From the IMG/VR virus record IMGVR_UViG_3300021399_000012, positions 8,053 to 72,052 of that record: a stretch of 64,000 bases of DNA; one strand, given 5' to 3'. The stretch comes from a virus (Duplodnaviria; Caudoviricetes). The notes beneath the pieces are model-generated. The model was not told where the DNA came from. It saw nothing but the letters and a program-made list of their open reading frames with translations, and made no database searches. Of the stretch, positions 2,992-39,857 are shown piece by piece (the first letter of the stretch is position 1; the number at the start of each line of letters is the position of its first letter). A program made the translations under genes and the position numbers.

Positions 2992-3615
2992 ATGAAAATG
3001 AAAAAACGACTAACCCAATCACTAGTGCTTATTGTGGCATTAGCAGGACTAATCACTCAGGTATCTATAACAAAAAATGTACAAAGAAAGGAACTAATAG
3101 AAAAAACAAAGAATTTACCATATTCTTATGAAGATATCATGGTACCACGAAATATCAAAGAAATGTTAACAGTGACGGAACAAGATGTACAAATCGTTGC
3201 GGCACAAATGGAACCAGAGATACCTAATCCAGAACTACTAGATACTTATATTTCTAGAGGATGGTCAGAAGAACATTTCTGGACAGATGTAGATATGATA
3301 GCAAAAATGACTATGGCTGAGGCAGAAGGAGAATCTGATCTTGGCAAACGTTATGTCATTGATGTTATTTTAAATCGTGTGGATAGCCACAAGTGGCCTA
3401 ATGATATCTGCAGCGTATTGTATGAATGCGGGCAATTTACAAGTATGGATAATGGCCGTTATGACAATGCATATGTCGACGACCATATTAAGAATTTAGT
3501 TGTTGAGGAATTATATTCTAGAACAAACTATGAGGTAATGTATTTCAAAACGGATGGTTACTTCTTATCCCATTTGGATGTGGAACAAATCGGTAATCAT
3601 TTCTTTTCGAAATAA
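2992..3615 (+). CDS. SleB-like cell-wall hydrolase (Hydrolase_2) with N-terminal membrane anchor
   Basis: AEAEGES..G...V..VILNRV catalytic motif, GQF and IGNH.F motifs; hydrophobic N-terminus. Confidence 0.85.
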   Translation: MKMKKRLTQSLVLIVALAGLITQVSITKNVQRKELIEKTKNLPYSYEDIMVPRNIKEMLTVTEQDVQIVAAQMEPEIPNPELLDTYISRGWSEEHFWTDVDMIAKMTMAEAEGESDLGKRYVIDVILNRVDSHKWPNDICSVLYECGQFTSMDNGRYDNAYVDDHIKNLVVEELYSRTNYEVMYFKTDGYFLSHLDVEQIGNHFFSK

Positions 3616-3635
3616 CAAGGAAGGAGTGACTCTGC

Positions 3636-3833
3636 ATGGAAAAACTTATATTTAGTTGTGAGTTTCCAGCAGATTCCTCTGAAGCTGAGAGACTTACAGA
3701 TTGGTTAATCACAAATCGTGTTAGAAGAGTAGTTACATCATCTAGTTTCAAGAAGGGTGTTATATTCACATCATACTTTATAGAATGCACAAATAAAATG
3801 CAACTTAAAAGATTATTAGACCTTTTCGCATAA
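3636..3833 (+). CDS. Hypothetical protein (65 aa)
   Basis: ORF with AGGAG RBS. Confidence 0.7.
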   Translation: MEKLIFSCEFPADSSEAERLTDWLITNRVRRVVTSSSFKKGVIFTSYFIECTNKMQLKRLLDLFA

Positions 3834-3852
3834 TTTACAGTCCAGATTATAG
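3827..3852 (+). promoter_or_regulatory. Promoter-like motif copy 1 (consensus CGY-N6-T-N-C-N9-TATRR)
   Basis: CGCATAATTTACAGTCCAGATTATAG; same spacing in 21 copies. Confidence 0.75.
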
Positions 3853-3886
3853 GAAACAATAATTAATATTATTGGAGGGCGACATT

Positions 3887-3994
3887 ATGGAAAAGGAAGA
3901 AACCAGATGGGAACAAATTACTACAGTTGATAATAACGGTTTAGTGATTTGTATCGAGTGGGTTCCTGTAAAGGTCCCGGTAGAGAAAAATTAA
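3887..3994 (+). CDS. Small hypothetical protein (35 aa, not in ORF track)
   Basis: GGAGG RBS; MEKEETRWEQ...VEKN; lies between a promoter motif and a repeat copy. Confidence 0.6.
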   Translation: MEKEETRWEQITTVDNNGLVICIEWVPVKVPVEKN

Positions 3995-4004
3995 ATATTG
4001 TTAA

Positions 4005-4033
4005 AGACCTTAGCAAGTCTATAAACTGCTAAA
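4005..4033 (+). repeat. Dispersed pseudoknot-forming repeat copy 1
   Basis: AGACCTTAGCAAGTCTATAAACTGCTAAA. Confidence 0.9.
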
Positions 4034-4040
4034 TTCTTTT

Positions 4041-4066
4041 CGTATTATATTCAACCATGTATATAG
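4041..4066 (+). promoter_or_regulatory. Promoter-like motif copy 2
   Basis: CGTATTATATTCAACCATGTATATAG followed by GAGG RBS. Confidence 0.75.
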
Positions 4067-4079
4067 GAGGTGAAGTAAT

Positions 4080-4214
4080 ATGGTAAAGGCAAGAGAAAAT
4101 CTAAAAGCAAAAATTAGAGCGATGTATAACGCAGGATATAGTACTGGCGAAATAGCCAAGGAATTAAATATTGCAGAATACAAAGTTGTAAGGATGCTTG
4201 GGATATCATATTAA
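4080..4214 (+). CDS. Stand-alone helix-turn-helix protein (44 aa, not in ORF track)
   Basis: KIRAMYNAGYSTGEIAKELNIAEYKVVRML; GGAGG RBS; terminator follows. Confidence 0.7.
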   Translation: MVKARENLKAKIRAMYNAGYSTGEIAKELNIAEYKVVRMLGISY

Positions 4215-7890: not shown

Positions 7891-8574
7891 ATGATTAAAA
7901 TCAACGGAAAGACATTGTCAACATTAACTTGCATTGGTGGTGCTGTATCGCTTGGAGGATTGATCACATACTTATGTGTGGATTCCGCTAAGAAAAGCAA
8001 GGCTGCTAAAGAGGAAAGAGAAAAGAAGTATCAGTATGAAAGAAAGGGTATCCTGGCGACGCTGGATGCTAATCCTATTCCAGAAGATATCGATATCTCC
8101 AACGCTACATTTGCTAATAAGGCATTTACAGGCGAGGAAAAGGCAGCAGCTAGAAAGGTTATCAAATATTATATTGATATCGCTGAGTGCGCAGAGAAGT
8201 CTATCAGGAATTCAAAGGACACAATTGAAATCCAGAATAGATTACTCGACAAGTACCTTGACAATGTAAACCAGGCTAAAAACATTATATCTGATTTCAC
8301 AAATCCTAATTTCTCAGCTGACATCATTAAGAGTGTGCTCGTGTACCAGTCATCTGTTCTTGCAGACATTGCAAAGGCAGCGGAGGAAGCACAAGCCCGT
8401 AAGGACGAGATGGATCGTCTTGATAGAGAGTATCAGATGGAGAAGTTAAGACTTGATAGAGAGGCAGCAGCTGAACAGCAGAAGCTCGAAGCATTAGCAG
8501 TTGCAGCTAAGGCAATGAGCTCCAACGTAAATGTACAGGTTGGAGATGCTAATGTAACTAAGGAGGAATCTTAA
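7891..8574 (+). CDS. Membrane-anchored coiled-coil protein (227 aa)
   Basis: N-terminal hydrophobic helix, charged helical body; GGGAGG RBS. Confidence 0.75.
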   Translation: MIKINGKTLSTLTCIGGAVSLGGLITYLCVDSAKKSKAAKEEREKKYQYERKGILATLDANPIPEDIDISNATFANKAFTGEEKAAARKVIKYYIDIAECAEKSIRNSKDTIEIQNRLLDKYLDNVNQAKNIISDFTNPNFSADIIKSVLVYQSSVLADIAKAAEEAQARKDEMDRLDREYQMEKLRLDREAAAEQQKLEALAVAAKAMSSNVNVQVGDANVTKEES

Positions 8575-24272: not shown

Positions 24273-27200
24273 ATGGAAGAATTCTTTGATGATGATTTTG
24301 AAGAAGATTCAGAAGAATCGTTAATGCATTATGGCACTAAACGACATTCGGGAAGATACAAGTATGGATCTGGTGAGAATCCATATCAGCACGAAGCGTG
24401 GTTTGTGTGGAATTACAACACTATAAAAAAGAATAATTTTGGTATTAGCGATGATGATATCAGAAAAGCCATGGGATACACCGGCAATGGTGGAAAGGCT
24501 AAATTTAATAGAGAAAAAGAAAGAGCATTTGACAATATAAAGGATATTGCAGATGTTATCATGCAGAAAGAAGGTTATACTAGAGATTCAGAAGTTGCGA
24601 GAGCACTTGGTATGAGTTCAGGAGACCTTCGAGCATTAAAAGGTATAGCGAAAGCTAAACAAAATGAGGACCTTATGAGACGTAACTTACAGCTCGTAGA
24701 GCATGGTTACAGTTCTAGAAATAAAAGAGCGGAAATGCTCGGTATTCCAGAATCCACTTTAAGAAATATGGAAAAAGATGGATATATGGAAAGAAATTCT
24801 AAAGCATACAATGTTGCTGAAGAAATGAAGAAGTACATCAAAGATGATAAATCTTATTATGATGTCGGAAAAGGTATTAATTATTCATTGAACGTTTCTG
24901 AACACACGATGCAAGAAGCCCTTACAATTCTGAAGAATCAAGGTTACGGTGTTCATAACATACAGGTTCCTCAGGCCACAAATCCTGATCAGAAGACTAC
25001 GGTTTCCGTATTAGGTCCTCAAGGGGCTTCTTGGGCTGATACGATGAAGAATCAGAATAATATCAGCACTTTTGATATGTATTTTAATGATGATGGAAAA
25101 ACTAGAAGAGGCATCTATGAGCCAAAATCTATAGATTCATCTAGAATTAAGATACATTATGGTGATGAGCAGTTCCAGGGTACTTTAGGTACTGATATGG
25201 ATGGTGTTATACAGCTTCGTAGAGGAGTTGGAGACATATCATTAGGAAAAGCGTCATACGCTCAGGTTCGTATCATGGTTGATGGTACGCATTACTTAAA
25301 AGGTATGGCTATCTATTCTGATAATATGCCTGCTGGAAAAGACATCATCTTTAATACTAATAAGCCTAGTGGAACACCAGCTTCTAAAGTATTCAAAAGC
25401 TTAAAGACAGTCGACATCAAAGATGCGAATGGTAATGTTATCAAAACAGAAATTGATAAAGATAATCCTTTTGGAGCAAATATTAAAGCTGGTGGACAGA
25501 ACTTCTATAAAAATAAAAATGGTGAATATGTCCAGACATCTATTGATAATTTTGAGAAAGCAACAGCATCTAATATTAAGAAAAGTATAGATGGTGAAAG
25601 ATACTCATTATCTGCTGCGAATATTATCAAAGAAGAAGGAGATTGGAATCATTATCAAAAGAAGTTGGCTTCTCAGTTCTTATCTAAGCAGCCTATGGAA
25701 CTCATTAACAAACAGCTGAATTTAACATATGCTGACAAGAATGCTGAATTTGAAGAAATTAAGAGTTTAACAAACCCTACTATCAAAAGAAAACTTCTTG
25801 CAGACTTCGCTGAATCATGTGATAAAGCAGCTGTTGATTTAAAAGTAGCAGCTTTACCAGGACAAACAGCTAAAGTAATATTGCCTGTTACTGATCTTAA
25901 AGAAGGTGAATGCTATTGTCCTACTTATAAAGATGGTACTTATTTGGCATTGGTTAGATATCCACATGCTGGAACTTTCGAAATTCCTATTGTTAAAGTT
26001 AATAATAAGAACAAGCAAGGTCAATCTATAGTTGGTCCAAATGCGCAGGATGCTATCGGAATATCTGCAAAAGATGCAGAACAGCTTTCAGGAGCTGATT
26101 TTGATGGCGATACTGTAGTTTGTCTACCTACAACTAGAAAGCCTACAGCTAATGGTATCTATATTGCTAGTAGAAAGCCATTTGAATCTTTAAAGAACTT
26201 CTCTACAAATGAGTATGCTATCTCTGATGAAAGATTCAAAGCTACTGGAGAGTACATTTTAGGAAAGAATCCTTTAAAGACAGATACTGAGAAAGTAGCT
26301 AATCTTAAGAACAAGATAGCAAACGGTTATAAGCCTACTGAAGCCGACTTTATAGAAGTTGGTAAAGAAAAGCTTGTTATGACTGAAGATGCTAAGCAAA
26401 AGCAAATGGGTGTTGTATCTAACCTTATTACAGATATGACGTTAAAAGGTGCATCTCCAGATGAATTAGCAAGAGCTACAAAGGCTTCAATGGTCGTAAT
26501 CGATGCTGTAAAGCATGAACTTGATTACAAGCAAGCATATGAAGATTGCCGAATTCCTGAGTTAAAGAAGATCTATCAGAAAGAGTACAATGAAGAAACT
26601 GGTGAAACAACTGGTGGTGCTTCTACATTGATATCACGTTCTAAGTCAGAAGTGAGAATCAAAGAAAGAAAAGAAGGCTCTACTGATTACATTGATCCTA
26701 AAACAGGAGAAAAAGGAAAGGCTCGTATGTATTACGATCCGAATACCGGTAAGCGTATCTATACTGAGACTGGTAGAACCTATACCGATAAGAATGGTAA
26801 CGAGGTGGAGGCTCTTCAGAAAGTAACCCGTATGGCCTATGCGGACGATGCCATGGACCTGGTATCCCAAATGGGTACTCAACAGGAAAAGGCATATGCA
26901 AGATATGCAAATGCACTTAAAGAGATGGCTAGAGAAAGTAGAAAAGAACTCTACAAGACCGACCGTGCCGTATACGATAAGGATGCTAAAGAAAAGTATG
27001 CCATCCAGGTAGAAAGACTACAGTCTAAGCTAGAATTAGCAGTTGCTAACTCCCCTAGAGAAAGACAGGCCCAGATAGATGCTAATAAGACTATCAAGGA
27101 GGCCATTCAGAGAGATCCTTCTCTTAAAGATGACAAAGAGCATAATGCTAGACTTAGACAACAAGCCATAGCGGCATCCCGGGATAAGTATGGGGCCAAA

Positions 27201-27473
27201 GGTAAAGATACTAGAATTAAGATAGAAGATGATGAATGGGAAGCTATACAGGCTGGAGCTATATCGGATAGTAAATTAGAGGAGATACTGAAGTATTGCG
27301 ATCTAGATGTTCTTAGAGAACGTGCAATGCCAAAGACTCAAAAGACATTATCCAATGCTCAGGCAGCTAGAATTAAAGCTATGAAGAACTCAGGCTTTAC
27401 AATAGCTGAAATAGCTGAACAAATGTCGTTGTCAACATCAACAGTGTCAAAGTACATTAAAGAAGCTGCTTAA
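24273..27473 (+). CDS. Single-chain two-barrel (DPBB) RNA polymerase, probably virion-associated
   Basis: QVR...YLKG, RYPHAG and LSGADFDGD catalytic motifs; HTH-like segments near the N-terminus and at the C-terminus; acidic leader ending in LMH. Confidence 0.85.
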   Translation: MEEFFDDDFEEDSEESLMHYGTKRHSGRYKYGSGENPYQHEAWFVWNYNTIKKNNFGISDDDIRKAMGYTGNGGKAKFNREKERAFDNIKDIADVIMQKEGYTRDSEVARALGMSSGDLRALKGIAKAKQNEDLMRRNLQLVEHGYSSRNKRAEMLGIPESTLRNMEKDGYMERNSKAYNVAEEMKKYIKDDKSYYDVGKGINYSLNVSEHTMQEALTILKNQGYGVHNIQVPQATNPDQKTTVSVLGPQGASWADTMKNQNNISTFDMYFNDDGKTRRGIYEPKSIDSSRIKIHYGDEQFQGTLGTDMDGVIQLRRGVGDISLGKASYAQVRIMVDGTHYLKGMAIYSDNMPAGKDIIFNTNKPSGTPASKVFKSLKTVDIKDANGNVIKTEIDKDNPFGANIKAGGQNFYKNKNGEYVQTSIDNFEKATASNIKKSIDGERYSLSAANIIKEEGDWNHYQKKLASQFLSKQPMELINKQLNLTYADKNAEFEEIKSLTNPTIKRKLLADFAESCDKAAVDLKVAALPGQTAKVILPVTDLKEGECYCPTYKDGTYLALVRYPHAGTFEIPIVKVNNKNKQGQSIVGPNAQDAIGISAKDAEQLSGADFDGDTVVCLPTTRKPTANGIYIASRKPFESLKNFSTNEYAISDERFKATGEYILGKNPLKTDTEKVANLKNKIANGYKPTEADFIEVGKEKLVMTEDAKQKQMGVVSNLITDMTLKGASPDELARATKASMVVIDAVKHELDYKQAYEDCRIPELKKIYQKEYNEETGETTGGASTLISRSKSEVRIKERKEGSTDYIDPKTGEKGKARMYYDPNTGKRIYTETGRTYTDKNGNEVEALQKVTRMAYADDAMDLVSQMGTQQEKAYARYANALKEMARESRKELYKTDRAVYDKDAKEKYAIQVERLQSKLELAVANSPRERQAQIDANKTIKEAIQRDPSLKDDKEHNARLRQQAIAASRDKYGAKGKDTRIKIEDDEWEAIQAGAISDSKLEEILKYCDLDVLRERAMPKTQKTLSNAQAARIKAMKNSGFTIAEIAEQMSLSTSTVSKYIKEAA

Positions 27474-27501
27474 TTAAAGTTTGAGAAAGGAGAAAAATTA
27501 A

Positions 27502-27744
27502 ATGGCTAAAGCTTATATGTTAACAACAGTTGATAATCCATTCAATCCTTTTGAAGACTTTGAGAAATGGTATCAGTTTGATGAGGAAAAAGGTTATCAT
27601 TCATGTCAAAGATTGGCAAGATTCACAAACAATTCAGATTTCATGTCTGATGCTGAGCAAAGAGAAGATCAATCACAAGCAATTGATAAAATTATTGCTT
27701 TAGACTTTACAAATTTGTATAAAAAAGTTTCTAAAGATCTTTGA
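27502..27744 (+). CDS. Hypothetical protein downstream of the RNAP gene (80 aa)
   Basis: AAGGAG RBS; YMLTTVDNPFNPF motif. Confidence 0.75.
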   Translation: MAKAYMLTTVDNPFNPFEDFEKWYQFDEEKGYHSCQRLARFTNNSDFMSDAEQREDQSQAIDKIIALDFTNLYKKVSKDL

Positions 27745-27880
27745 TTGACTCATTGAATGAATCATTTCTAAATTAAAAAGAAGATTGTTGTGTGATTTAA
27801 TATTTATTTTGGATTCTTCTTTCTGTTTTCATTCTTTTGGTTGGCACACTGAGGCTAATCGGATATAAAAAGAATGGACA

Positions 27881-27950
27881 GGGGGAGGGGTCCGCTAAAT
27901 ATACACCCCCTCCTATATCGCGGCGGTCTTAAAAAATTCTCCGGAGGGAT
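27881..27950. other. GC-rich island upstream of the terminase genes; candidate cos/packaging site
   Basis: GGAGGGG...CCCCTCC inverted repeat and CGCGGCGG in an AT-rich intergenic region upstream of terS and HNH. Confidence 0.4.
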
Positions 27951-27961
27951 ATTTTTAAAAC

Positions 27962-28071
27962 TTATATCGGTATTAGTACTGGGCATTTAAGCGTGAACGC
28001 GTGGAAAAATCCCCCAGCTAAAAAGTACACCATAAGTAATGCTTAAGTGCTCAGTACTGATACTGATATAA
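27962..28071 (+). ncRNA. 33-bp stem-loop in the leader of the packaging operon
   Basis: All five non-Watson-Crick positions are G.U on the + strand; 44-nt loop. Confidence 0.55.
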
Positions 28072-28102
28072 ATTATATATCAGGTAAAAGGAGTGAAAAC
28101 TA

Positions 28103-28444
28103 TTGGGAAAGGCTAAGCAAACTAGTGATGGTTTTGAGGCTAAGACTCGTCCAGCGTTGTCTCCAGAAGCAAAACAAGCTCAATTGATAGGTTTAGCCAT
28201 GGATAATGTCGAACGACGTCTAAGAGAGAACAAAGCCTCAGCTCAAGAGATCATTCACTTTTTAAAATTAGGTACAGTCCAGGCAGAATTGGACTTAGAG
28301 AGAGCAAAATTAGAAAACGAATTAGTAAAAGCTAAAACAGAATCACTTCAGTCGGCAGCAAAGATGGAAGAAACATATACGAAAGCTCTAGAAGCTATGC
28401 GAAGATATTCTGGACATGGGGACGAAGAGGATGAGAACATATAG
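28103..28444 (+). CDS. Putative terminase small subunit
   Basis: Position before HNH and terL; helical 113-aa protein; TTG start with GGAG RBS. Confidence 0.6.
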   Translation: MGKAKQTSDGFEAKTRPALSPEAKQAQLIGLAMDNVERRLRENKASAQEIIHFLKLGTVQAELDLERAKLENELVKAKTESLQSAAKMEETYTKALEAMRRYSGHGDEEDENI

Positions 28445-28841
28445 CGAGTTAATACAAATACCAACTTTCGAAGAAAGACTATTATATTTAAAGTTAGATT
28501 CGAAAGTAGGATTCACAACATTTGGTGGTAACCGATACATGAATCAGCAATTCTATAATTCTAAAGAATGGAAAGATATTTGTAGCTTTGTGATAACTCG
28601 TGATAATGGATGTGATCTAGGCGTTAAAGGATACGAATTGTTTGATGATATTTTAGTTCATCATATGAATCCTATAAACGTTGATGACATAAGATTCTCA
28701 ACACCGTTTCTTTTAGATCCGGAATATTTAATTTCTACATCTCGTAGAACTCACAACGATATACATTATGGTAATGACACAATTATATCTAGAGAACCAA
28801 TCATTAGAAAACCGAATGACACGATTCCTTGGAAACAATAA
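28431..28841 (+). CDS. HNH endonuclease (packaging-associated)
   Basis: RDNGCD...VHHMNP...HNDIH. Confidence 0.8.
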   Translation: MRTYSELIQIPTFEERLLYLKLDSKVGFTTFGGNRYMNQQFYNSKEWKDICSFVITRDNGCDLGVKGYELFDDILVHHMNPINVDDIRFSTPFLLDPEYLISTSRRTHNDIHYGNDTIISREPIIRKPNDTIPWKQ

Positions 28842-28853
28842 TGTTTAATAGGA

Positions 28854-29675
28854 GTGACCTATATGAGTGAACAATATTTAGCCCATCATGGCATACGAGG
28901 TCAAAAATGGGGAAAGAAAAATGGTCCCCCTTATCCTTTAGATTGGACCGATCATTCTACAGCAGAAAAGAAAGAACTGACTAAGGATGAAATACGTGCC
29001 ATGACTGAGGACATGGATGAAGTTACAAACTTCAACAAGAGAGTAGCTGTGTACTATGATACAAAGATGGAAGTCAATAAATCGCAGGCACAGTATCTCG
29101 ATAGTAAGAAAACCGCAGGAGAAAAATTCAAAGAGAATCTCAAGAATAAATTAACCAGCGGAATTATCGACGGATTGAGCAAAGGTGCTTCAAAAGCTGT
29201 TGAAACATCCATAAACAACATCACTGATGAATTATGGAAGAGAGCGAGAGAGCAGATGGATCCAGAAGGCGAAGCTATGAAAGCTAAGACTGCTGAACTG
29301 GAAAGAAAGAATGCTTTATCGAAAGCACAAAGCGAATACGATCGATACAAGAAAGAAAAAGAGAACAAGCAGGTAAACGATGTGTTATCTAAGCTTGACC
29401 TAGAAGACAAATTACGTAAAGCAACACAAGCGAAAGAAGACGCTTCTTATTATAGAGAAAAAGAACTTGCAAATAGAGCAAGGGAAGAAGCCGAGACAAA
29501 GGCTAAAACTCAGGAAGCTCTTAATAAGCTTGCTAAAGCAGAATATGAGCGTGATTTAATGTCAAACGACCCATCTAAGTTCTTTAGTAATGATAAAAAA
29601 TCAAAAGGTTCATCAGACAGTCTATCAGAAGATGACGTACGTAGAATAGCTAAAGAAATAATGGATGAGATGTAA
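28854..29675 (+). CDS. Putative internal head protein with LAH-HGIRGQKWG motif (273 aa)
   Basis: YLAHHGIRGQKWGKKNGPPYPL followed by a Lys/Glu-rich coiled coil. Confidence 0.7.
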   Translation: MTYMSEQYLAHHGIRGQKWGKKNGPPYPLDWTDHSTAEKKELTKDEIRAMTEDMDEVTNFNKRVAVYYDTKMEVNKSQAQYLDSKKTAGEKFKENLKNKLTSGIIDGLSKGASKAVETSINNITDELWKRAREQMDPEGEAMKAKTAELERKNALSKAQSEYDRYKKEKENKQVNDVLSKLDLEDKLRKATQAKEDASYYREKELANRAREEAETKAKTQEALNKLAKAEYERDLMSNDPSKFFSNDKKSKGSSDSLSEDDVRRIAKEIMDEM

Positions 29676-29704
29676 AAAAAATCAAAATACGGGGGTAAAT
29701 AGAA

Positions 29705-31444
29705 ATGGCGTTGTCCAATACAGCGGTTCCCGTTTACTATGGACAATTTAGAGATCAAGTCTTACGTGGTGAAATACCCGTAAACGAGTTCATAGCCATG
29801 GAAATGAACCGTATCGATAGTCTAATAGCCAATCCAGGAATTTATTACGATGATAAAGCTATGGATGGTTTTGTAGAGTTCTGTGAATGCGAGTTAACAC
29901 TTACGGATGGTGCAGACCTAAAGCTATTAGACTCATTTAAATTATGGGCCGAACAAATATTCGGCTGGTATTACTTTCAAGAACGTAGTGTCCCAGTACC
30001 AGATGAAAATGGTATAACACATTACGTTAAGAAAACTATCAAGAAACGTTTAGTTAATAAACAGTATTTGATAGTTGCCAGAGGTGCTGCCAAATCAATG
30101 TATGGTTCTTGTATACAGAACTATTTCTTGAATGTTGACACATCAACTACACATCAGATAGCAACTGCTCCAACTATGAAGCAGGCCGATGAAGTTATGT
30201 CACCTATAAGAACTGCCATAACAAGAGCTAGAGGTCCTTTGTTTAAATTCTTAACAGAAGGATCTTTACAAAACACCACTGGTTCTAAAGCCAATAGAGT
30301 TAAACTGGCATCTACGAAAAAGGGTATAGAAAATTTCCTGACTGGTTCTCTATTGGAAGTTAGACCAATGAGCATAAATAAGCTTCAAGGTTTAAGACCA
30401 AAGATTTGTACAATCGATGAGTGGCTATCAGGAGATATACGAGAGGATGTAATCGGTGCATTAGAGCAAGGTGCCTCTAAGATAGATGACTATTTAATAG
30501 TTGCTATATCTTCAGAAGGTACAGTTCGAAATGGAGCTGGAGACACAATCAAAATGGAGCTCTTAGATATTCTTAAGGGCGAGTATGTGAATCCTCACGT
30601 ATCTATATGGTACTATAGACTTGATAAAGTGGAAGAAGTTGCCGATCCTAATATGTGGATAAAAGCAAACCCAAATATAGGTCTGACTGTTTCTTATGAA
30701 ACATATCAATTGGACGTAGAAAGAGCCGAGAAAGCTCCAGCTGCTAGAAATGATATTTTAGCAAAGAGATTCGGAATTCCTATGGAAGGTTACACATATT
30801 TCTTCTCATATGAAGAGACTATACCTCATAGAAAACAGAATTTCTGTGGTATGCCATGCGCTTTGGGTGGCGATATGTCACAGGGCGATGACTTCTGTGC
30901 ATTTACATTCTTATTCCCATTACGTGATGGATTCGGAGTGAAGACTCGAAGTTATATTTCATCATTAACATTACATCGATTACCAGGAGCTATGCGAGCA
31001 AAGTATGACGAGTTCATAGAAGAAGGAAGCTTGATAGTATTGGAAGGCAATATTCTTGATATGATGGAAGTTTACGACGATCTCGATAAACACATAATCG
31101 ATCAAGAGTATGACGTTCGATGCTTTGGCTATGATCCATATAATGCTAAAGAATTTGTAGCTAGATGGGAACTCGAGAATGGACCTTTCGGTATAGAGAA
31201 AGTAATACAAGGAGCGAGAACAGAAACAGTTCCACTCGGAGAACTTAAGAAATTATCAGAAGAAAGAGCACTATTATTCGACGAAGAGCTTATGTGCTTT
31301 ACAATGGGTAATTGTATAACACTAGAGGATACAAATGGTAATAGAAAGTTGTTAAAGAAGAGATATGAAGCTAAAATCGATAATGTAGCAGCTATGATGG
31401 ATGCGTTTGTAGCTTATAAGTTGAATAAAGATGCATTCGAGTAA
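29705..31444 (+). CDS. terL: Terminase large subunit
   Basis: Walker A VARGAAKS, Walker B TIDEW, nuclease GGDMSQGDD, KIDNVAA. Confidence 0.92.
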   Translation: MALSNTAVPVYYGQFRDQVLRGEIPVNEFIAMEMNRIDSLIANPGIYYDDKAMDGFVEFCECELTLTDGADLKLLDSFKLWAEQIFGWYYFQERSVPVPDENGITHYVKKTIKKRLVNKQYLIVARGAAKSMYGSCIQNYFLNVDTSTTHQIATAPTMKQADEVMSPIRTAITRARGPLFKFLTEGSLQNTTGSKANRVKLASTKKGIENFLTGSLLEVRPMSINKLQGLRPKICTIDEWLSGDIREDVIGALEQGASKIDDYLIVAISSEGTVRNGAGDTIKMELLDILKGEYVNPHVSIWYYRLDKVEEVADPNMWIKANPNIGLTVSYETYQLDVERAEKAPAARNDILAKRFGIPMEGYTYFFSYEETIPHRKQNFCGMPCALGGDMSQGDDFCAFTFLFPLRDGFGVKTRSYISSLTLHRLPGAMRAKYDEFIEEGSLIVLEGNILDMMEVYDDLDKHIIDQEYDVRCFGYDPYNAKEFVARWELENGPFGIEKVIQGARTETVPLGELKKLSEERALLFDEELMCFTMGNCITLEDTNGNRKLLKKRYEAKIDNVAAMMDAFVAYKLNKDAFE

Positions 31445-31456
31445 AAGGAAAGAATT

Positions 31457-32266
31457 ATGGAAAGAGCAGAGTTTTATTCAGCACTATATGATTCTAATAA
31501 TTATTTAGAGCATCATGGTGTTGATGGACAGAAATGGGGTAAACGTAATGGACCTCCATATCCATTGAATTCCGAGGGTAAAGCAAGTCTGAAGAAACAG
31601 AGAAAAGCTGAGAAATTAAATACCGAGAATAAATTAGCATATGAACAATATAAATATGCTGGAAGAGCGAATACTGCATATAATGTTAAAGTGGCAGGTC
31701 GTGTAGCAGCTCCTGTTGGAGGTATAATTGGAGCTGGTATAGGTAGCACGGTAGGACCTGAAGGCACTGTATTAGGCACAATAGCCGGACTTGCAATAGC
31801 TGATCTTGGTGCGTCAGCAACCTCTGGTATTATTAATCTCGGTATGAATGCAGTAAGAAATAGCAAGTATAAAAAAGCTCTCATAGAGTCGCAGAAACGT
31901 GCAGAAGATGATTTGGATAGACTTATGATATCGAAAAAATACAAACCAAATCTCGATAGCGGTGGTGATTTTATGACAAAGACAATTAATGGTGTTGAGA
32001 TTGATGTCGATTATACATACGACGCAGATCGTAACCGTATCGCAAAAAATGTCCAAAAATTAGAACCTAAGGTTGGATATATAAATGATCAGTTCACAAA
32101 GGAGTTGAAAGATAATGGCTATGGTGCACTTGTGAATAATAAAAGACATATGTATATATCAGATACAGTTTGCGAGATAGGTACCTATCACGACGGCCAT
32201 GACTATTCAACATATATAAACGAAGAAAATGGTAAAATTGAAAAAGGCATTATGATGAATGGTTAA
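31457..32266 (+). CDS. Putative internal head/ejection protein with LEH-HGVDGQKWG motif and Gly-rich hydrophobic hairpin (269 aa)
   Basis: 19-aa leader; GGIIGAGIG...GTIAGLAIA segment. Confidence 0.7.
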   Translation: MERAEFYSALYDSNNYLEHHGVDGQKWGKRNGPPYPLNSEGKASLKKQRKAEKLNTENKLAYEQYKYAGRANTAYNVKVAGRVAAPVGGIIGAGIGSTVGPEGTVLGTIAGLAIADLGASATSGIINLGMNAVRNSKYKKALIESQKRAEDDLDRLMISKKYKPNLDSGGDFMTKTINGVEIDVDYTYDADRNRIAKNVQKLEPKVGYINDQFTKELKDNGYGALVNNKRHMYISDTVCEIGTYHDGHDYSTYINEENGKIEKGIMMNG

Positions 32267-32325
32267 CCTATAAACAAAAAAGAACTTGAGTTATGAAAAA
32301 ATCAAAATAAGGAGAACATTGTGTA

Positions 32326-32700
32326 ATGAATGAATCAATATTATCTACTATAAAAGATATGCTAGATGTTGATGTTGACCCAGAAGAAGATGAAATTGGA
32401 GAATTCGACAATATATTAATTATTAATATTAATACAGTGTTCTCCATATTAAATCAAATGGGAGTGGGCACAGATGAACCATTTGTTATTACGGGCTATG
32501 ATGAGACATGGGACCAATTTATAGGAGAAGCTGTAGGTATTGAAATGGTGAAAACTTATATTTACTTAAAAGTAAAGATGATGTTCGATCCACCATCAGG
32601 AGCCCAAAAAGAAGCAAATGAAAATGTAATTAAAGAACTGGAATATAGACTATATGTTCTGGAAGATCTTAGAAAAGGAGCGATGAATAATGAATCGTGA
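32326..32700 (+). CDS. Putative head-tail adaptor/connector (124 aa)
   Basis: SIL.TIK.ML...FD..L...IN.VFS.L.Q.GVG...FDPP pattern typical of this module; remote assignment. Confidence 0.55.
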   Translation: MNESILSTIKDMLDVDVDPEEDEIGEFDNILIININTVFSILNQMGVGTDEPFVITGYDETWDQFIGEAVGIEMVKTYIYLKVKMMFDPPSGAQKEANENVIKELEYRLYVLEDLRKGAMNNES

Positions 32701-33061
32701 TGATTACTTCTCTAAATTAAGTAAATCTAAGAATGCATTGTCTCACGGAATGATGACTGCGGAACCCGTAGAGAGAGTCTACGTACCAGTGGTAAAAAAT
32801 GAGTCGTCTGACGCTGAAATAAAGAAGATGATTTCTAATTACGAGAAAGATATCGCAGCTAGAAAGTCTAAGTTAAAAGAACTTAGAGACAAACAGGAAG
32901 AACTCCGTGCTAATATGGAGTCCACACGAAATCTTTTAACAAGAATGGATGACGAAATGTCCGAGTTATCAAATCAGGTTGGCATTGTGAAAGATAGGAT
33001 ACTGGAAGACAATGCAAAGATTGATACTCTTCAATCATCCCTTAGAATTTTAGGAAAATAG
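32690..33061 (+). CDS. Coiled-coil protein with the 19-aa L-x-H leader (123 aa)
   Basis: MNRDDYFSKLSKSKNALSH-G. Confidence 0.7.
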   Translation: MNRDDYFSKLSKSKNALSHGMMTAEPVERVYVPVVKNESSDAEIKKMISNYEKDIAARKSKLKELRDKQEELRANMESTRNLLTRMDDEMSELSNQVGIVKDRILEDNAKIDTLQSSLRILGK

Positions 33062-33080
33062 TTATGGAAAGGAGACCACA

Positions 33081-34100
33081 ATGGATAGACGAGAATTCTA
33101 TTCTAACTTAGCTGATTCTAGAGAAGCTTTAGAACATGCTGAAGGTTTTCAGAGAGCAAATCACAAATACATAAATCGTTTCCGTGGTAGAAATGGTAAA
33201 TGGATTTACGAGTATGCTGAAGATCTGAAAGAGAAGGCTAATTCTACAGCTGCTAAAGCTAAGAAATCGCTAGGCTCTGCAGGAAATGATGCTAAGAAAA
33301 CATTAGACTCTGCAGGGGATAATGCTAAGAAAACATTGGCCAAAGCAAAAACTCGAGTGTCGAAAGGCATGAATATGGCTTCTAAATTTGGATCTGCTAA
33401 GCTTAAAGAACTGTCGAAAACCAGCGACACAGCAGTCGCAAAAGGAAAGTATCATTTAGCTAATCTAAAAAATAAAGTAGAAAAACCAACAGCTCCAGAA
33501 GAGTGGGAAAAATATGGCAAATATCAACGCGAATATGAAACTAAACAGGCTCGTATTGGCAAAGCCAGAGATCGTATGCATAAAATAGAAGCCGGTCACC
33601 ATACGTCTGATAAAAAGGCTGATAGAAAAGAACGTCTTAAGAACGTACAAAATGATTACAGTGTAGTCGGAAATGCTAACAAACAGCGCCAATTCATTGA
33701 AAATCAAGAATACGTAGAGAAAAAGCGACAAGAAGCCAAAAAGGCAAAAGAGAAAGATCGTAAAGATCGTATAGAATATAAAAAAGAAGCTGCACAAGAA
33801 GAAAGACTCGGTACTACATATGACAAGGCGCTCGATTCTATTTTCGATAAGACTGTTCGTGATAATAAAGAAAGATCACGACAGGCAAGTGCTAAAGATA
33901 CTCCTAAGGAGTATAAAGAAGAATACATATTTAACACTGGTAGTGGGTCTGATCAAGACATTCTTATAAACCTTAAGAGACAGGAAGACAGAGATAAGCT
34001 ATTAACAGCTAAAAAACGTGATGAAGCTGCTGCTCATAAGAAATATCTTGAAAAAATGCGTAGAGAACGTAATAGACAACGTCGTAACGATCGTACCTAA
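33081..34100 (+). CDS. Highly basic putative internal head protein with the 19-aa L-x-H leader (339 aa)
   Basis: MDRREFYSNLADSREALEH-A; HKYI....RNGKWIYEY; Lys/Arg-rich. Confidence 0.7.
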   Translation: MDRREFYSNLADSREALEHAEGFQRANHKYINRFRGRNGKWIYEYAEDLKEKANSTAAKAKKSLGSAGNDAKKTLDSAGDNAKKTLAKAKTRVSKGMNMASKFGSAKLKELSKTSDTAVAKGKYHLANLKNKVEKPTAPEEWEKYGKYQREYETKQARIGKARDRMHKIEAGHHTSDKKADRKERLKNVQNDYSVVGNANKQRQFIENQEYVEKKRQEAKKAKEKDRKDRIEYKKEAAQEERLGTTYDKALDSIFDKTVRDNKERSRQASAKDTPKEYKEEYIFNTGSGSDQDILINLKRQEDRDKLLTAKKRDEAAAHKKYLEKMRRERNRQRRNDRT

Positions 34101-34124
34101 TTCAAAATAAGGGAGAAATAACCT

Positions 34125-35441
34125 ATGCCAGCATTTACAGACAGACTGGCACATGCTTGGAACGCGTTCTTAAATAAAGACTCTACTGATTATTATGGCG
34201 GTCGAGAACTATCAAACTCCTTTGAGTATGGTTCTAACTTTAGACCTGACAGGCCTAGATTCACCAGAGGCAATGAGCGATCGATACTTACATCTATATA
34301 CAATAGAATGGCTTTGGATTGTGCATCAGTCGACATACAGCATGTCCAACTTGATGAAAACAATCGTTATGTATCGACTATTGATTCTGGATTGAATAAT
34401 TGCCTGACAGTCGAAGCAAACATAGATCAGACTGGAAGAGCATTTAGACAAGATATTTATATGTCTATGTTTGATGAAGGGTGCGTCGCAATCGTGGCTA
34501 CTGACACAGACATAAACCCTTTAGACACATCATCATATGATATACTGAGCATGCGAACTGGAAAAGTTACAGCGTGGTATCCAAAGCATGTAAGGGTTAA
34601 ATTGTATGATGAGAATACAGCATCCCACAGAGAAGTTGTATTGCCAAAGTCTAAGGTCGCGATAATAGAAAATCCATTTTATGCAGTAATGAATGAACCT
34701 AATTCTACTCTGCAGCGTTTAAAACGTAAATTGGTGCTCATAGATCAAATAGACGAACAAGCAGGTGCTAATAAATTAGACTTGATAATTCAATTGCCGT
34801 ATGTTGTTAAATCACAGGCAAGAAAACAGCAAGCAGAAGAACGTCGAGCAGAAATCGAAAATCAGCTTGCTAACGGTAAATATGGTATCGCATACACTGA
34901 CGGTACCGAACATATAACACAGCTAAATAGGTCGGTCGATAACCAACTGTTATCACAGATCGAATATTTAACAAATCAGTTGTATAGTCAATTAGGCATG
35001 ACAACTGCAATATTAGACGGTACTGCTGATGAAAGAACAATGCTAAACTATAACAACAGAGTTATAGAAGTATGTGTCTCAGCAGTAGTTGATGAGTTTA
35101 AGCGTACGTTCTTAACAAAGACGGCTAGAACTCAGAAAAAATCAATCATGTTCTTCAGAGATCCATTCAGACTTGTTCCTGTTGATAATCTTGCCGATAT
35201 CGCAGATAAGTTCACAAGAAATGAGATCCTTTCTTCTAATGAAGTTAGACAGATTATAGGTCTTAAGCCTATCAACGATCCGAAAGCAGACGAGTTAAGA
35301 AACAAGAATCTAAACGTCGCTGAAGGTCAAGAATACGCAACGACCAATCCTACTGCGCAGGTTGAGGGAAGTGCTGAAGAAACAGAAAATTATGATGCAG
35401 AAAACATGGCTCAAATGCCAGCATCATTATTTAACCAGTAA
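34125..35441 (+). CDS. Portal protein
   Basis: Position, size (438 aa) and HK97-type portal features. Confidence 0.85.
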   Translation: MPAFTDRLAHAWNAFLNKDSTDYYGGRELSNSFEYGSNFRPDRPRFTRGNERSILTSIYNRMALDCASVDIQHVQLDENNRYVSTIDSGLNNCLTVEANIDQTGRAFRQDIYMSMFDEGCVAIVATDTDINPLDTSSYDILSMRTGKVTAWYPKHVRVKLYDENTASHREVVLPKSKVAIIENPFYAVMNEPNSTLQRLKRKLVLIDQIDEQAGANKLDLIIQLPYVVKSQARKQQAEERRAEIENQLANGKYGIAYTDGTEHITQLNRSVDNQLLSQIEYLTNQLYSQLGMTTAILDGTADERTMLNYNNRVIEVCVSAVVDEFKRTFLTKTARTQKKSIMFFRDPFRLVPVDNLADIADKFTRNEILSSNEVRQIIGLKPINDPKADELRNKNLNVAEGQEYATTNPTAQVEGSAEETENYDAENMAQMPASLFNQ

Positions 35442-35459
35442 CATAGGAGGACATTCAAA

Positions 35460-37361
35460 ATGGGATCAAAATATGATTTCGGTGGTTACGCTACTCGAAA
35501 TGATCTCCGTTGCTCTGATGGTCGAATCATTAGACATAATGCATTTATCGATAATGACGGCCAGGTTGTAGCATTAATGTGGAATCACAAGCATGATACT
35601 ATTGATTCTGTAATCGGTCACGCATTGCTTGAAAATAGAGAAGATGGCGTTTACGCTTATTGTTCTCTTAATGATTCTCCAGGAGCTGACAAAGCTCGTA
35701 GTGCTATTAAACATGGTGATATAGATTCATTATCTATATATGCAAACCATTTGAAGCAGAATGGCAACAATGTCATTCATGGAGTTATTCGAGAAGTAAG
35801 CTTAGTTTTGGCAGGAGCGAATCCTGGTGCTCGTATCGACACCGTTATGATTCACTCTGATGCTGAAGACGGTGAGGAGGCAGAGATTTTTATGCATTCA
35901 CAAATGGATATCTTCAACGACGATCTTGCTGATGATATGTTAGATGACGACATCATGCATGCTGACAGTGACGATGAAGATGAAAAAGGAGAGACTGTCG
36001 AAGATGTGTTTAACACATTGACAGAAAAGCAGAAGAAAGTCGTTTATGCGATAATTGGGCAAGCAATTCAGGACGCAAAGGCTGGAAAATCTGCAAAGCA
36101 TTCTGACGAGGATGAAGGAGATGACGATGTTATCGCTCATGCTGAAATGGAGCTGGGTGACGACGCTACAGTCGAAGATGTATTTAATACATTGAATGAA
36201 ACTCAGAAGAATGTAGTTTATGCGCTTATCGGCCAGGCGTTAGAAGAGGCTGAAATTCAACATTCAGATTATGAAGGAGACTACGAAATGAAAGAAAATG
36301 TTTTTGATACTGATAGTGTTATGACAACAACTTTGTCACACGCAGATATTGAAGAGATTATGGATGACGCAAAGCGCTACGGTTCCCTTAAGGATTCTGT
36401 ACTTGCGCATGCAGCTGATTATGGTATTGAGAATATCGGAACATTGTTCCCATATGAGCCAGAAGATGGTAAGTTACTTAATGACCCATCATTTATTCAG
36501 AGAGATGACAGCTGGGTTCCTAAGGTTGTTCAGGGTGCTCATCACTCACCATTCTCTAGAGTAAAGTCTATCTTTGCTAACATCACAGAGGATGAAGCAA
36601 GAGCTAAGGGTTACATTAAGGGCCACCTGAAGAAGGAAGAGGTATTCCCACTCTTGAAGAGAGCTACTTCTCCTACAACAATCTACAAGAAGCAGAAGCT
36701 CGATAGAGATGATATTGTAGATATTACAGATTTCAATGTTGTTAACTTTATTAAGGGTGAGATGAAGATCATGCTTAATGAGGAAATCGGTAGAGCTATC
36801 CTGGTTGGAGACGGTAGAGCTGCATCTGATGAAGATAAGATTTCTGAGCTTAACATTCGTCCAATCTGGACAGATCATGAGTTGTACACAATTACTCAGA
36901 CGGTTCCATTAGCAGCTAATACTAAAGATGATGATAAGGCTAAGGCTATCGAGAGAGCTGCTGTAAAGGCACGTAAGAACTACAAGGGTTCAGGAAATCC
37001 TACATTCTTCACAACAGAAGATGTTCTTACAGACATGCTGCTTCGTGAGGATACTACAGGACGTAAGATCTACTCATCTATCAACGAGCTTGCTACAGCT
37101 CTTAGAGTTAAGGAGATCGTTACAGTTCCAGTAATGGAAGGCCTTACAAGAGAAGTTGGTGGTAAGACACATACACTTCAGGGTATTATCGTTAATATGA
37201 ACGATTACAATATCGGTGCTGATAAGGGCGGAGAGCTTAACATGTTCGACGACTTCGATATCGATTACAACCAGCAGAAGTACTTGATTGAGACTCGTAT
37301 CTCAGGTGCTTTGGTTAAGCCATACTCTGCAATCGTAATTGAGACAGTACCAGCTGCCTAA
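35460..37361 (+). CDS. Prohead protease-scaffold-major capsid protein fusion (internal MCP start likely at 36288)
   Basis: N-terminal HK97-type protease (WNH, SLSIYA), acidic repeat scaffold, C-terminal capsid domain; GAAGGAGA RBS before in-frame ATG 36288. Confidence 0.85.
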   Translation: MGSKYDFGGYATRNDLRCSDGRIIRHNAFIDNDGQVVALMWNHKHDTIDSVIGHALLENREDGVYAYCSLNDSPGADKARSAIKHGDIDSLSIYANHLKQNGNNVIHGVIREVSLVLAGANPGARIDTVMIHSDAEDGEEAEIFMHSQMDIFNDDLADDMLDDDIMHADSDDEDEKGETVEDVFNTLTEKQKKVVYAIIGQAIQDAKAGKSAKHSDEDEGDDDVIAHAEMELGDDATVEDVFNTLNETQKNVVYALIGQALEEAEIQHSDYEGDYEMKENVFDTDSVMTTTLSHADIEEIMDDAKRYGSLKDSVLAHAADYGIENIGTLFPYEPEDGKLLNDPSFIQRDDSWVPKVVQGAHHSPFSRVKSIFANITEDEARAKGYIKGHLKKEEVFPLLKRATSPTTIYKKQKLDRDDIVDITDFNVVNFIKGEMKIMLNEEIGRAILVGDGRAASDEDKISELNIRPIWTDHELYTITQTVPLAANTKDDDKAKAIERAAVKARKNYKGSGNPTFFTTEDVLTDMLLREDTTGRKIYSSINELATALRVKEIVTVPVMEGLTREVGGKTHTLQGIIVNMNDYNIGADKGGELNMFDDFDIDYNQQKYLIETRISGALVKPYSAIVIETVPAA

Positions 37362-39305: not shown

Positions 39306-39857
39306 ATGCTTACAGTTAATGTAAAAGGACGTGAATTGTTTGACGAAGCTAACATGTCATTTTCAGTTACGAAAGACTGTGAGCTTCACTTAGAACATTC
39401 ATTAATATCGATATCTAAATGGGAGAGCAAATGGCATAAACCGTTCTTATCAAATAAAGATCAAGTGACAACTACCGAGTTGTTAGATTACATAAAGTGT
39501 ATGACTCTTGATAAAAATGTTGATCCAAAGGTTTATATTGCTCTCGCCAATGATGTCGATGCTATTAAATCTATAAATGATTACATACAAGATCCAATGA
39601 CAGCAACTTGGTTTTCCGATAAGAAAAAAGGACGAGATTCAGAAGTGATCACATCTGAGTTGGTGTACTATTGGATGACTGCATACAATATTCCATTCGA
39701 GTGTGAAAAATGGCATATAAACAGATTGATAACATTGATCAGAGTATGCAGTGAAAAGAATAACCCAGATAAAAAGAAAATGGGTATAAATGAAACAATG
39801 AGTCAAAATCGAGCATTAAATGAAGCTCGAAAGAAAGCATTACATACGAGAGGTTAA
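39306..39857 (+). CDS. Second tail assembly chaperone-like protein
   Basis: Position; own AAGGAG RBS. Confidence 0.6.
   Translation: MLTVNVKGRELFDEANMSFSVTKDCELHLEHSLISISKWESKWHKPFLSNKDQVTTTELLDYIKCMTLDKNVDPKVYIALANDVDAIKSINDYIQDPMTATWFSDKKKGRDSEVITSELVYYWMTAYNIPFECEKWHINRLITLIRVCSEKNNPDKKKMGINETMSQNRALNEARKKALHTRG

Follow-up and report, generated by a model that had tools for sequence, protein, structure and literature searches.

A candidate His-specific prohead cleavage motif shared by a protease-scaffold-capsid fusion and putative virion cargo in siphoviruses of Gram-positive hosts

Results

An L-x-H motif in the head module of a gut phage

We analysed a 64,000-nucleotide stretch of a gut phage (the window; positions 8,053 to 72,052 of IMG/VR record IMGVR_UViG_3300021399_000012, a complete virus record of 72,052 bases with direct terminal repeats) and focused on an L-x-H motif that recurs in proteins encoded between positions 24273 and 37361. 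The explanation that we favour, with a probability of roughly two in three, is that the S78 prohead protease of the phage cuts after the His of this motif, and that cargo proteins carrying it (RNA polymerase, GNAT acetyltransferase, 2H phosphoesterase, deamidase and ADP-ribosyltransferase) are loaded into the head and trimmed there. In this account, a single chain encoded at 35460-37361 unites an HK97-type (S78) protease with a helical scaffold and the major capsid protein. After prohead assembly, the protease would cut past the His of [L>V,I]-x-His, with the next position taken by a small residue, His, Tyr or Phe. Within the fusion, these cuts would set the protease free, break the acidic scaffold into pieces and yield a capsid protein that starts at Ala295. 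The motif also stands at the head of proteins whose genes surround those of the terminase and portal, namely the polymerase, two DUF7211 proteins, one coiled-coil and one basic protein, and probably the portal itself; proteins tagged in this way would be built into the prohead, trimmed at the His, retained with the DNA and mostly ejected into the host.

All genes in the window lie on the + strand, and the G+C content is about 36%. The gene order in the region (Table 1) is RNA polymerase, two small genes, HNH nuclease, p28854 (unnamed proteins are designated by the first position of their gene), large terminase, p31457, connector, p32690 (coiled coil), p33081 (very basic), portal and the S78-capsid fusion of 633 residues.

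Putative cleavage sites in the fusion protein

An alignment of 55 distinct fusion proteins revealed a conserved protease, a variable acidic spacer and a conserved capsid domain. A sequence-only reading of the window had pointed to six repeated histidines in the scaffold region, and each of these (H132, H146, H167, H214, H227 and H268) is indeed followed by Ser or Ala and then by Asp, Glu or Gln. The T-L-S-H294 that it also named is followed by Ala and ends the 18 residues that begin at the in-frame Met277 (36288). Among the 323 spacer histidines of the 55 fusions (His being P1), the P3 residue was Leu in 55%, Val in 14%, Ile in 11%, Ala in 8% and Met in 5%, giving 93% aliphatic residues, compared with a Leu share of 6.1% among spacer residues overall. 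P1' was Ser, Ala or Gly in 61% and P2' was Asp or Glu in 41%. L-x-H was observed 153 times in the spacers versus 19.4 expected, an enrichment of about 8-fold, whereas the mature capsid part held 4 versus 16.4 expected. The sites at the two borders were near-universal, with H132 between protease and scaffold and L292 of L292-x-H294 between scaffold and capsid each conserved in at least 90% of sequences. A further V-L-A-H317 site lies inside the first helices of the capsid domain.

In the protease domain, H43, S92, H107 and E112 were invariant in 43 of 43 sequences and are candidate catalytic residues. The capsid part matched the capsids of gene transfer agent (GTA), T5 and HK97 by Foldseek (E = 5e-11 to 1e-9), with a weak PF05065 match; a PDB sequence search with the fusion protein returned 0 matches. 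The AlphaFold2 model of the fusion (mean predicted local distance difference test score, pLDDT, 75.6) showed residues 1-129 as an ordered beta-rich protease domain, followed by two helical scaffold repeats, a helix beginning exactly at 294 and then the HK97 fold. Disordered segments (131-177, 211-228 and 266-289, pLDDT below 50) contained 6 of the 7 spacer His sites.

The position of Met277 was occupied by ATG, GTG or TTG, together with an upstream Shine-Dalgarno-like word, in 53 of 55 homologues, whereas such a word preceded only 25% of other internal Met codons. What is conserved is therefore the start function of the codon and not its amino acid, and for the same reason a short capsid-only precursor, with an 18-residue leader ending in L-S-H294, is probably also made.

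A near-invariant [VL]-L-G-H followed by Ala was also seen at fusion residues 52-54 (35613-35621), on a predicted beta strand inside the protease domain. It fits the site pattern and may mark self-cleavage or be structural only.

The polymerase and its N-terminal motif

The polymerase comprises 1,066 residues and contains the catalytic-loop motif G-A-D-F-D-G-D, an instance of the two-barrel D-x-D-G-D motif that Koert et al. (bioRxiv 10.1101/842583) pointed out in this lineage. In a tblastn search with the polymerase, 40 of the 40 alignments among the matches listed began at query residue 17. L-x-H-[Y/E]-G was kept in all 13 full-length homologues (33-41% identity), preceded by 3-24 unconserved residues. 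The DUF7211 profile PF23847 (cut-off 27 bits) matched the polymerase at 24303-24341 below its cut-off (E = 0.014, 12.3 bits). Within the polymerase body, L-x-H was depleted (3 versus 16.3 expected, z = -3.4), whereas eight control L-x-X words showed ratios of 0.83-1.66, that is, no depletion. This difference is an independent hint that the polymerase may be exposed to the protease.

The polymerase homologue of Lactococcus phage 1706, ORF75, is labelled 'structural protein' in GenBank EU081845.1 and carries S-L-Q-H followed by Y-G. In Arthrobacter phage Mudcat, polymerase gp94 has an N-terminal L-x-H followed by Tyr, without a G-x-x-G-x-x-W-G box. A PDB sequence search with the window polymerase returned 0 matches.

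Distribution of the motif in the window

The translations bore out the N-terminal motifs that had been read from the sequence. The polymerase (24273), p31457, p32690 and p33081 all have S13, L17 and H19, and the last three share M-x-R-x-[ED]-[FY]-[YF]-S-x-L, with every quoted string in place; p28854 has Y-L-A-H followed by His, and the portal has R-L-A-H followed by Ala. Overall, 6 of the 98 called + strand genes carried L-x-H within the first 20 residues versus 2.0 expected from residue shuffles (P = 0.015), and none of the remaining 92 did. All six lay inside 11 consecutive head-module genes (clustering P = 1.5e-5).

The 19-residue leaders of p31457, p32690 and p33081 were alike as peptides, differed at synonymous sites and were each preceded by their own ribosome-binding site. 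Because the synonymous sites differ, these leaders are, as judged from their codons, conserved as peptides and not recent DNA copies. Recent duplication, or composition and chance, could be proposed as the source of the similar N-termini, given the mutual similarity of these three leaders and the modest raw count of six genes. We consider this hardly credible: the C-terminal parts are unrelated (polymerase, portal, coiled coil, enzymes), the leader DNA has diverged as described, and the motif persists at protein identities of 33-41% and in phages of different bacterial phyla.

A conserved DUF7211 box follows the motif across the phage lineage

When the 13-kb region was compared by megablast with 50,697 phage records, 0 matches and thus no close DNA-level relative emerged. 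Protein-level searches with the fusion and with the polymerase each matched about 250 phage records, and the four commonest host genera had the same counts in both (Arthrobacter 95, Gordonia 55, Streptomyces 54, Lactococcus 13). Records from Faecalibacterium and the human gut were matched as well. The lineage consists of 55-72-kb siphoviruses of Gram-positive hosts (Firmicutes and Actinobacteria) and includes Lactococcus phage 1706, Faecalibacterium phage FP_oengus, Arthrobacter phage Mudcat, Rhodococcus phage ReqiPepy6 and Streptomyces and Gordonia relatives. It is the group of Koert et al. (bioRxiv 10.1101/842583), in which the polymerase is named as a signature gene and the motif is unmentioned. 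From at least 579 matches of an IMG/VR terminase search we took 80 further loci, and 85 loci were analysed for tags.

On cargo proteins, the opening that follows the motif is Pfam DUF7211 (PF23847), a family of unknown function, on which relatives scored 26-99 bits. A logo of 94 non-redundant N-terminal tags, drawn from the surroundings of the terminase and portal genes at the 85 loci, read L (91%)-x-H (100%)-[H/Y/F]-G-[V/I]-[K/L]-G-[M/Q]-[K/R/H]-W-G-x-R-[R/K]. Aliphatic-x-His was present in 121 of the 121 non-redundant DUF7211 boxes at these loci; in addition to the N-terminal tags, 26 boxes were internal to proteins, and each of these had aliphatic-x-His. In ReqiPepy6, seven consecutive genes (gp15 to gp21) each open with the box. 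Mudcat gp7 and gp9 also open with it, and gp11 opens with L-x-H followed by Tyr, without the G-x-x-G-x-x-W-G box. ORF7 of phage 1706 carries two boxes and is likewise labelled 'structural protein' in GenBank EU081845.1. A literature search on DUF7211, on its box string and on prohead-protease cleavage after His returned nothing relevant. The labels of ORF75 and ORF7 reportedly derive from mass spectrometry by Garneau et al. in 2008.

The sequence-only reading had taken the leader itself as a capsid-targeting code, and this part was not supported. Residues ahead of P3 carried less than about 1 bit each, and leader length ranged from 6 to 61 residues. The conserved information, about 45 bits, extended from P3 to P12' and lay mostly past the His, and boxes also occurred internally. 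When the leader was searched across relatives, S13 and M-x-R-x-E-F-Y-S-x-L were restricted to close relatives of the window phage. With conservation lying past the His, the leader is an unlikely address label. If such a label exists, the box after the His (G-[VI]-x-G-[MQ]-x-W-G-x-R-[RK] of DUF7211, and a second basic/aromatic box) is the more likely one, and in that case it would stay on the mature protein. The data fit a role of the box either in targeting or after ejection.

A tblastn search with the box against the 50,697 phage records matched 68, all from host groups of the lineage or from unannotated human-gut records. Among phage records, the box was thus confined to the lineage in which the protease-capsid fusion and the polymerase also occur. 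This distribution bears on a further explanation, namely that the cut is real and made by a host protease. Staphylococcus phage 80-alpha provides a precedent, in that the host Prp protease trims its capsid and scaffold proteins. Beyond that precedent, nothing in the data points to a host enzyme, and we regard this explanation as very improbable: the motif is identical in phages of Firmicutes and Actinobacteria, and it co-occurs with the phage's own S78-capsid fusion among phage records.

Boxes at the domain junctions of putative effector polyproteins

A profile search with the tag found at least 4,198 longer proteins among 5.8 billion, and boxes were counted in the best 120 of these at least 4,198 proteins. 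In that set, P1 was His in 388 of 388 boxes and P3 was Leu in 93%, with a pattern that left P1 free; polyproteins reached 1,746 residues and up to seven boxes, including the N-terminal one outside the pattern. The boxes stood at the domain junctions of effector polyproteins, and the domains between them were GNAT acetyltransferase, 2H/2'-5' RNA-ligase-like phosphoesterase, papain-fold glutamine deamidase, ADP-ribosyltransferase and sigma-70 region 4. GNAT, 2H phosphoesterase, deamidase and ADP-ribosyltransferase are enzyme kinds that phages are known to inject. The 1,746-residue polyprotein is encoded by a 64-kb relative (locus L092, ENA ERZ1024287 scaffold_607, 10001-15241) and has five boxes, one of them at the N-terminus, and an acetyltransferase domain. 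The gene order of this relative is otherwise the same, and the polyprotein occupies the slot between terminase and portal that is filled by four separate genes in the window.

Similar arrangements were observed at other loci. In the cargo protein at 1566-2927 of locus L089, an internal DUF7211 box (residues 115-135) precedes a toxin domain of the papain-fold glutamine deamidase type (PF15644, E = 1.8e-7). Two proteins, at 3157-4101 of locus L052 and at 10681-12276 of locus L085 (ReqiPepy6 gp13), have a 2H phosphoesterase domain followed by an internal box, and the L052 protein also begins with an L-x-H leader. Both may be injected enzymes that act on RNA ends or signalling nucleotides. No Pfam match to the MuF (SPP1 gp7-like) domain was found on the window proteins or on ten cargo proteins of relatives.

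Neighbouring tagged proteins

The longest open reading frame of p28854 opens at GTG 28854, but ATG 28863 is preceded by an AGGAG that overlaps the GTG. Translation probably begins at ATG 28863, and the leader would then have 8 residues. The extended G-P-P-Y-P-L variant of its box occurs in more than 100 database proteins. In p31457, a Gly/Ala/Ile-rich hydrophobic stretch of about 50 residues (31697-31855), of glycine-zipper type by eye, would suit a membrane-inserting ejection protein.

Relatives of p33081 in IMG/VR were limited to a single short match (L089) that covers the second box only. In Mudcat gp11 and ReqiPepy6 gp23, both encoded directly 3' of the portal gene, the L-x-H is followed by a similar box, H-E-Y-Y-x-R-T-R-x-L-K-G-R. 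For the portal, hydrophobic-x-H-[AS]-W-N was kept in about 85% of 57 distinct N-termini.

Outside the region, p39306 (39306-39857, 183 residues, beside the tail assembly chaperone) contains L-x-L-E-H-S-L-[VI]-S-L-S-K-W-E at residues 27-40 in all relatives examined. Its L-E-H (residues 29-31) was considered as an extra site and set aside, as the motif lies within a conserved domain and the gene among tail-chaperone genes; it probably belongs to that domain and does not mark a cut site.

Table 1. Features of the head module, with positions in the window
Feature	Positions	Strand	Remarks
Single-chain two-barrel (YonO/crAss-like) RNA polymerase with C-terminal helix-turn-helix; candidate virion cargo	24273..27473	+	phrog_4291, E = 2e-297
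Polymerase leader, acidic, 19 residues, ending L17-M-H19	24273..24329	+	homologue alignments begin at residue 17
Conserved polymerase segment after the His, Y-G-T-x-R-x-S-G-R-Y-x-[WY]-G-S-G; weak DUF7211-like box	24330..24392	+	kept in all homologues
p28854 leader ending L-A-H	28863..28886	+	gene 28854-29675; AGGAG just ahead of ATG 28863
p28854 DUF7211 box, H-G-I-R-G-Q-K-W-G ... G-P-P-Y-P-L variant	28887..28940	+	PF23847 19.9-23 bits, below the 27-bit cut-off
p31457 leader, 19 residues, ending L17-E-H19	31457..31513	+	same leader in close relatives and locus L012 only
p31457 DUF7211 box	31514..31567	+	gene 31457-32266; PF23847 28.1 bits (over cut-off), 24.7 by hmmscan
p32690 (coiled coil) leader, 19 residues, ending L17-S-H19, then G	32690..32746	+	gene 32690-33061; no DUF7211 box
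p33081 (basic) leader, 19 residues, ending L17-E-H19, then A	33081..33137	+	gene 33081-34100
p33081 second basic/aromatic box after the His, H-K-Y-I-x-R ... N-G-K-W-I-Y-E-Y	33159..33215	+	IMG/VR match in locus L089
Portal N-terminus, L8-A-H10, then A-W-N-A-F	34125..34154	+	gene 34125-35441
Prohead protease domain (Peptidase_S78)	35460..35852	+	PF04586 27.2 bits (cut-off 21 bits), residues 24-129
Scaffold spacer, residues 132-294	35853..36341	+	seven hydrophobic-x-His sites (H132, 146, 167, 214, 227, 268, 294); two helical repeats
Conserved in-frame internal start, Met277	36288..36290	+	AAGGAGA ahead (window 36273-36290)
Mature HK97-fold major capsid protein, predicted start A295	36342..37361	+	Foldseek; helix start at 294

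Discussion

Here, we describe an L-x-H motif that would serve as a cleavage site for an S78 prohead protease. Apart from the targeting code, the earlier proposal fits these data in both of its remaining parts. Cleavage by the S78 protease after His is consistent with the enrichment of the motif in the spacer, with the two conserved borders and with the position of boxes at polyprotein junctions. Cargo status is consistent with the 'structural protein' labels that two phage 1706 proteins carry, one homologous to the polymerase and the other to a DUF7211 protein. Motif counts and their conservation, the architecture of the domains and the order of the genes are observed here, and we infer the scissile bond, the packaging of cargo and the targeting role of the box.

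Several observations weigh against cleavage after the His. To our knowledge, His at P1 has been reported for no prohead protease. The AlphaFold2 model places 0 spacer sites in the protease groove and leaves the spacer disordered. The portal is the weakest member of the set, because its His is replaced by Arg, Asn or Ser in about 15% of sequences, namely FP_oengus, Mudcat and six IMG/VR loci. The depletion test is also of limited reach: in the terminase TerL, the HNH nuclease and the capsid part, the deviations of control words are as large as that of L-x-H, and since sequences of conserved families share ancestry, the test is informative for the divergent polymerase only. Finally, P1' is small at the scaffold sites but His, Tyr or Phe at the DUF7211 sites, and the length of the box far exceeds what a protease requires, so that L-x-H could belong to a binding motif and remain uncut. 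In that alternative, the whole DUF7211 box including L-x-His would be an anchor to scaffold, portal, shell or DNA, with the spacer sites cut or not. The reach of the conserved information to P12', far past the footprint of protease subsites, and the differing P1' residues would suit such an anchor. We nevertheless hold it to be unlikely, because p32690, p33081, the portal and every spacer site have the three-residue core but lack the remainder of the box, and because boxes are located at domain junctions of polyproteins. In addition, no tag begins right at the post-His box, even the shortest leaders reaching L-x-H; the sole tag that starts inside the box (P0233) looks like a truncated gene call.

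Cleavage after the His by the S78 protease is therefore the reading that we retain. A broader joint claim, which we rate as an even bet, is that an S78 protease with evolved P1-His specificity and the DUF7211 box together form a portable 'load, cut and inject' tag with a very large, as yet unannotated repertoire of phage-delivered effectors in a lineage spanning Firmicutes and Actinobacteria phages, a repertoire that would include a ready-made RNA polymerase and multi-effector polyproteins processed in the capsid. If true, this would assign a function to a Pfam family present in at least 4,198 database proteins and add a rare P1-His specificity to the assemblin-like proteases. Injected effectors (acetyltransferases, 2H phosphoesterases, deamidases, ADP-ribosyltransferases, a polymerase) would become readable straight from sequence, and a working tag would offer a simple route for loading reporter proteins into siphovirus heads. 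The lineage has cultured members, namely phage 1706, FP_oengus and hundreds of Arthrobacter, Gordonia and Streptomyces isolates, and quick testing is therefore possible.

The organisation of the fusion recalls herpesvirus assemblin (UL26/UL26.5) and lambda C/Nu3, in which the protease is fused to the scaffold and a shorter in-frame product arises from an internal start. Assemblin sites are (V/L)-x-A followed by Ser, with an aliphatic P3 and a small P1'. The difference is that the nested short product here would be the capsid protein, and that the full chain combines three functions. In the MuF polymorphic toxins, variable deamidase, ADP-ribosyltransferase and GNAT domains are likewise carried on a constant head-associated module and encoded beside the portal; the constant module here is a 15-residue box, present in up to 7 copies per protein, and the MuF domain was not detected. 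The polymerase resembles N4 vRNAP, crAss-like gp66 and SPbeta YonO in being a single chain encoded beside structural genes. In contrast to the packaged polymerases of N4 and crAss-like phages, its packaging is suggested by the phage 1706 ORF75 label and the common tag.

Among phage proteases, gp245 of SPN3US recognises A-x-E and cuts past its Glu, with a preference for Ser at P1'; its substrates are capsid, portal and ejection proteins (PMC10052503). The phiKZ and SPN3US enzymes (gp175 and gp245) share with the present system a motif of small or aliphatic residue-x-P1, a preference for Ser at P1' and the (here putative) removal of N-terminal propeptides with several sites each, theirs coming from the capsid, the portal and abundant ejection proteins (PMC10052503), and phages of this type also carry virion RNA polymerase subunits (PMC2919709). 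They differ in that their motif is A/S/G-x-Glu, their protease is encoded by a separate gene and no DUF7211-like box lies past the site. In T4, the protease gp21 trims Alt, the capsid protein and the internal proteins, taking off N-terminal propeptides 7-65 residues long (PMC9026906). The T4 capsid-targeting sequence (CTS) of IPI-III and Alt is similar in that short propeptides stand on unrelated prohead proteins that are trimmed by the head protease, retained with the DNA and ejected (PMC9026906), as would be the case here. The cargo (putative here) includes an ADP-ribosyltransferase in both, the same motif also cuts the scaffold (a prediction here), and the N-termini end in the motif of the putative protease (six N-termini, seven spacer sites and H317). 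The present system differs from T4 in having His instead of Glu at P1, and in an S78 protease that is fused to scaffold and capsid protein in siphoviruses of Gram-positive hosts. Moreover, the leader ahead of the site is unconserved here; the conserved element is the box past the site, which the mature protein would retain, and boxes also occur internally, giving rise to polyproteins.

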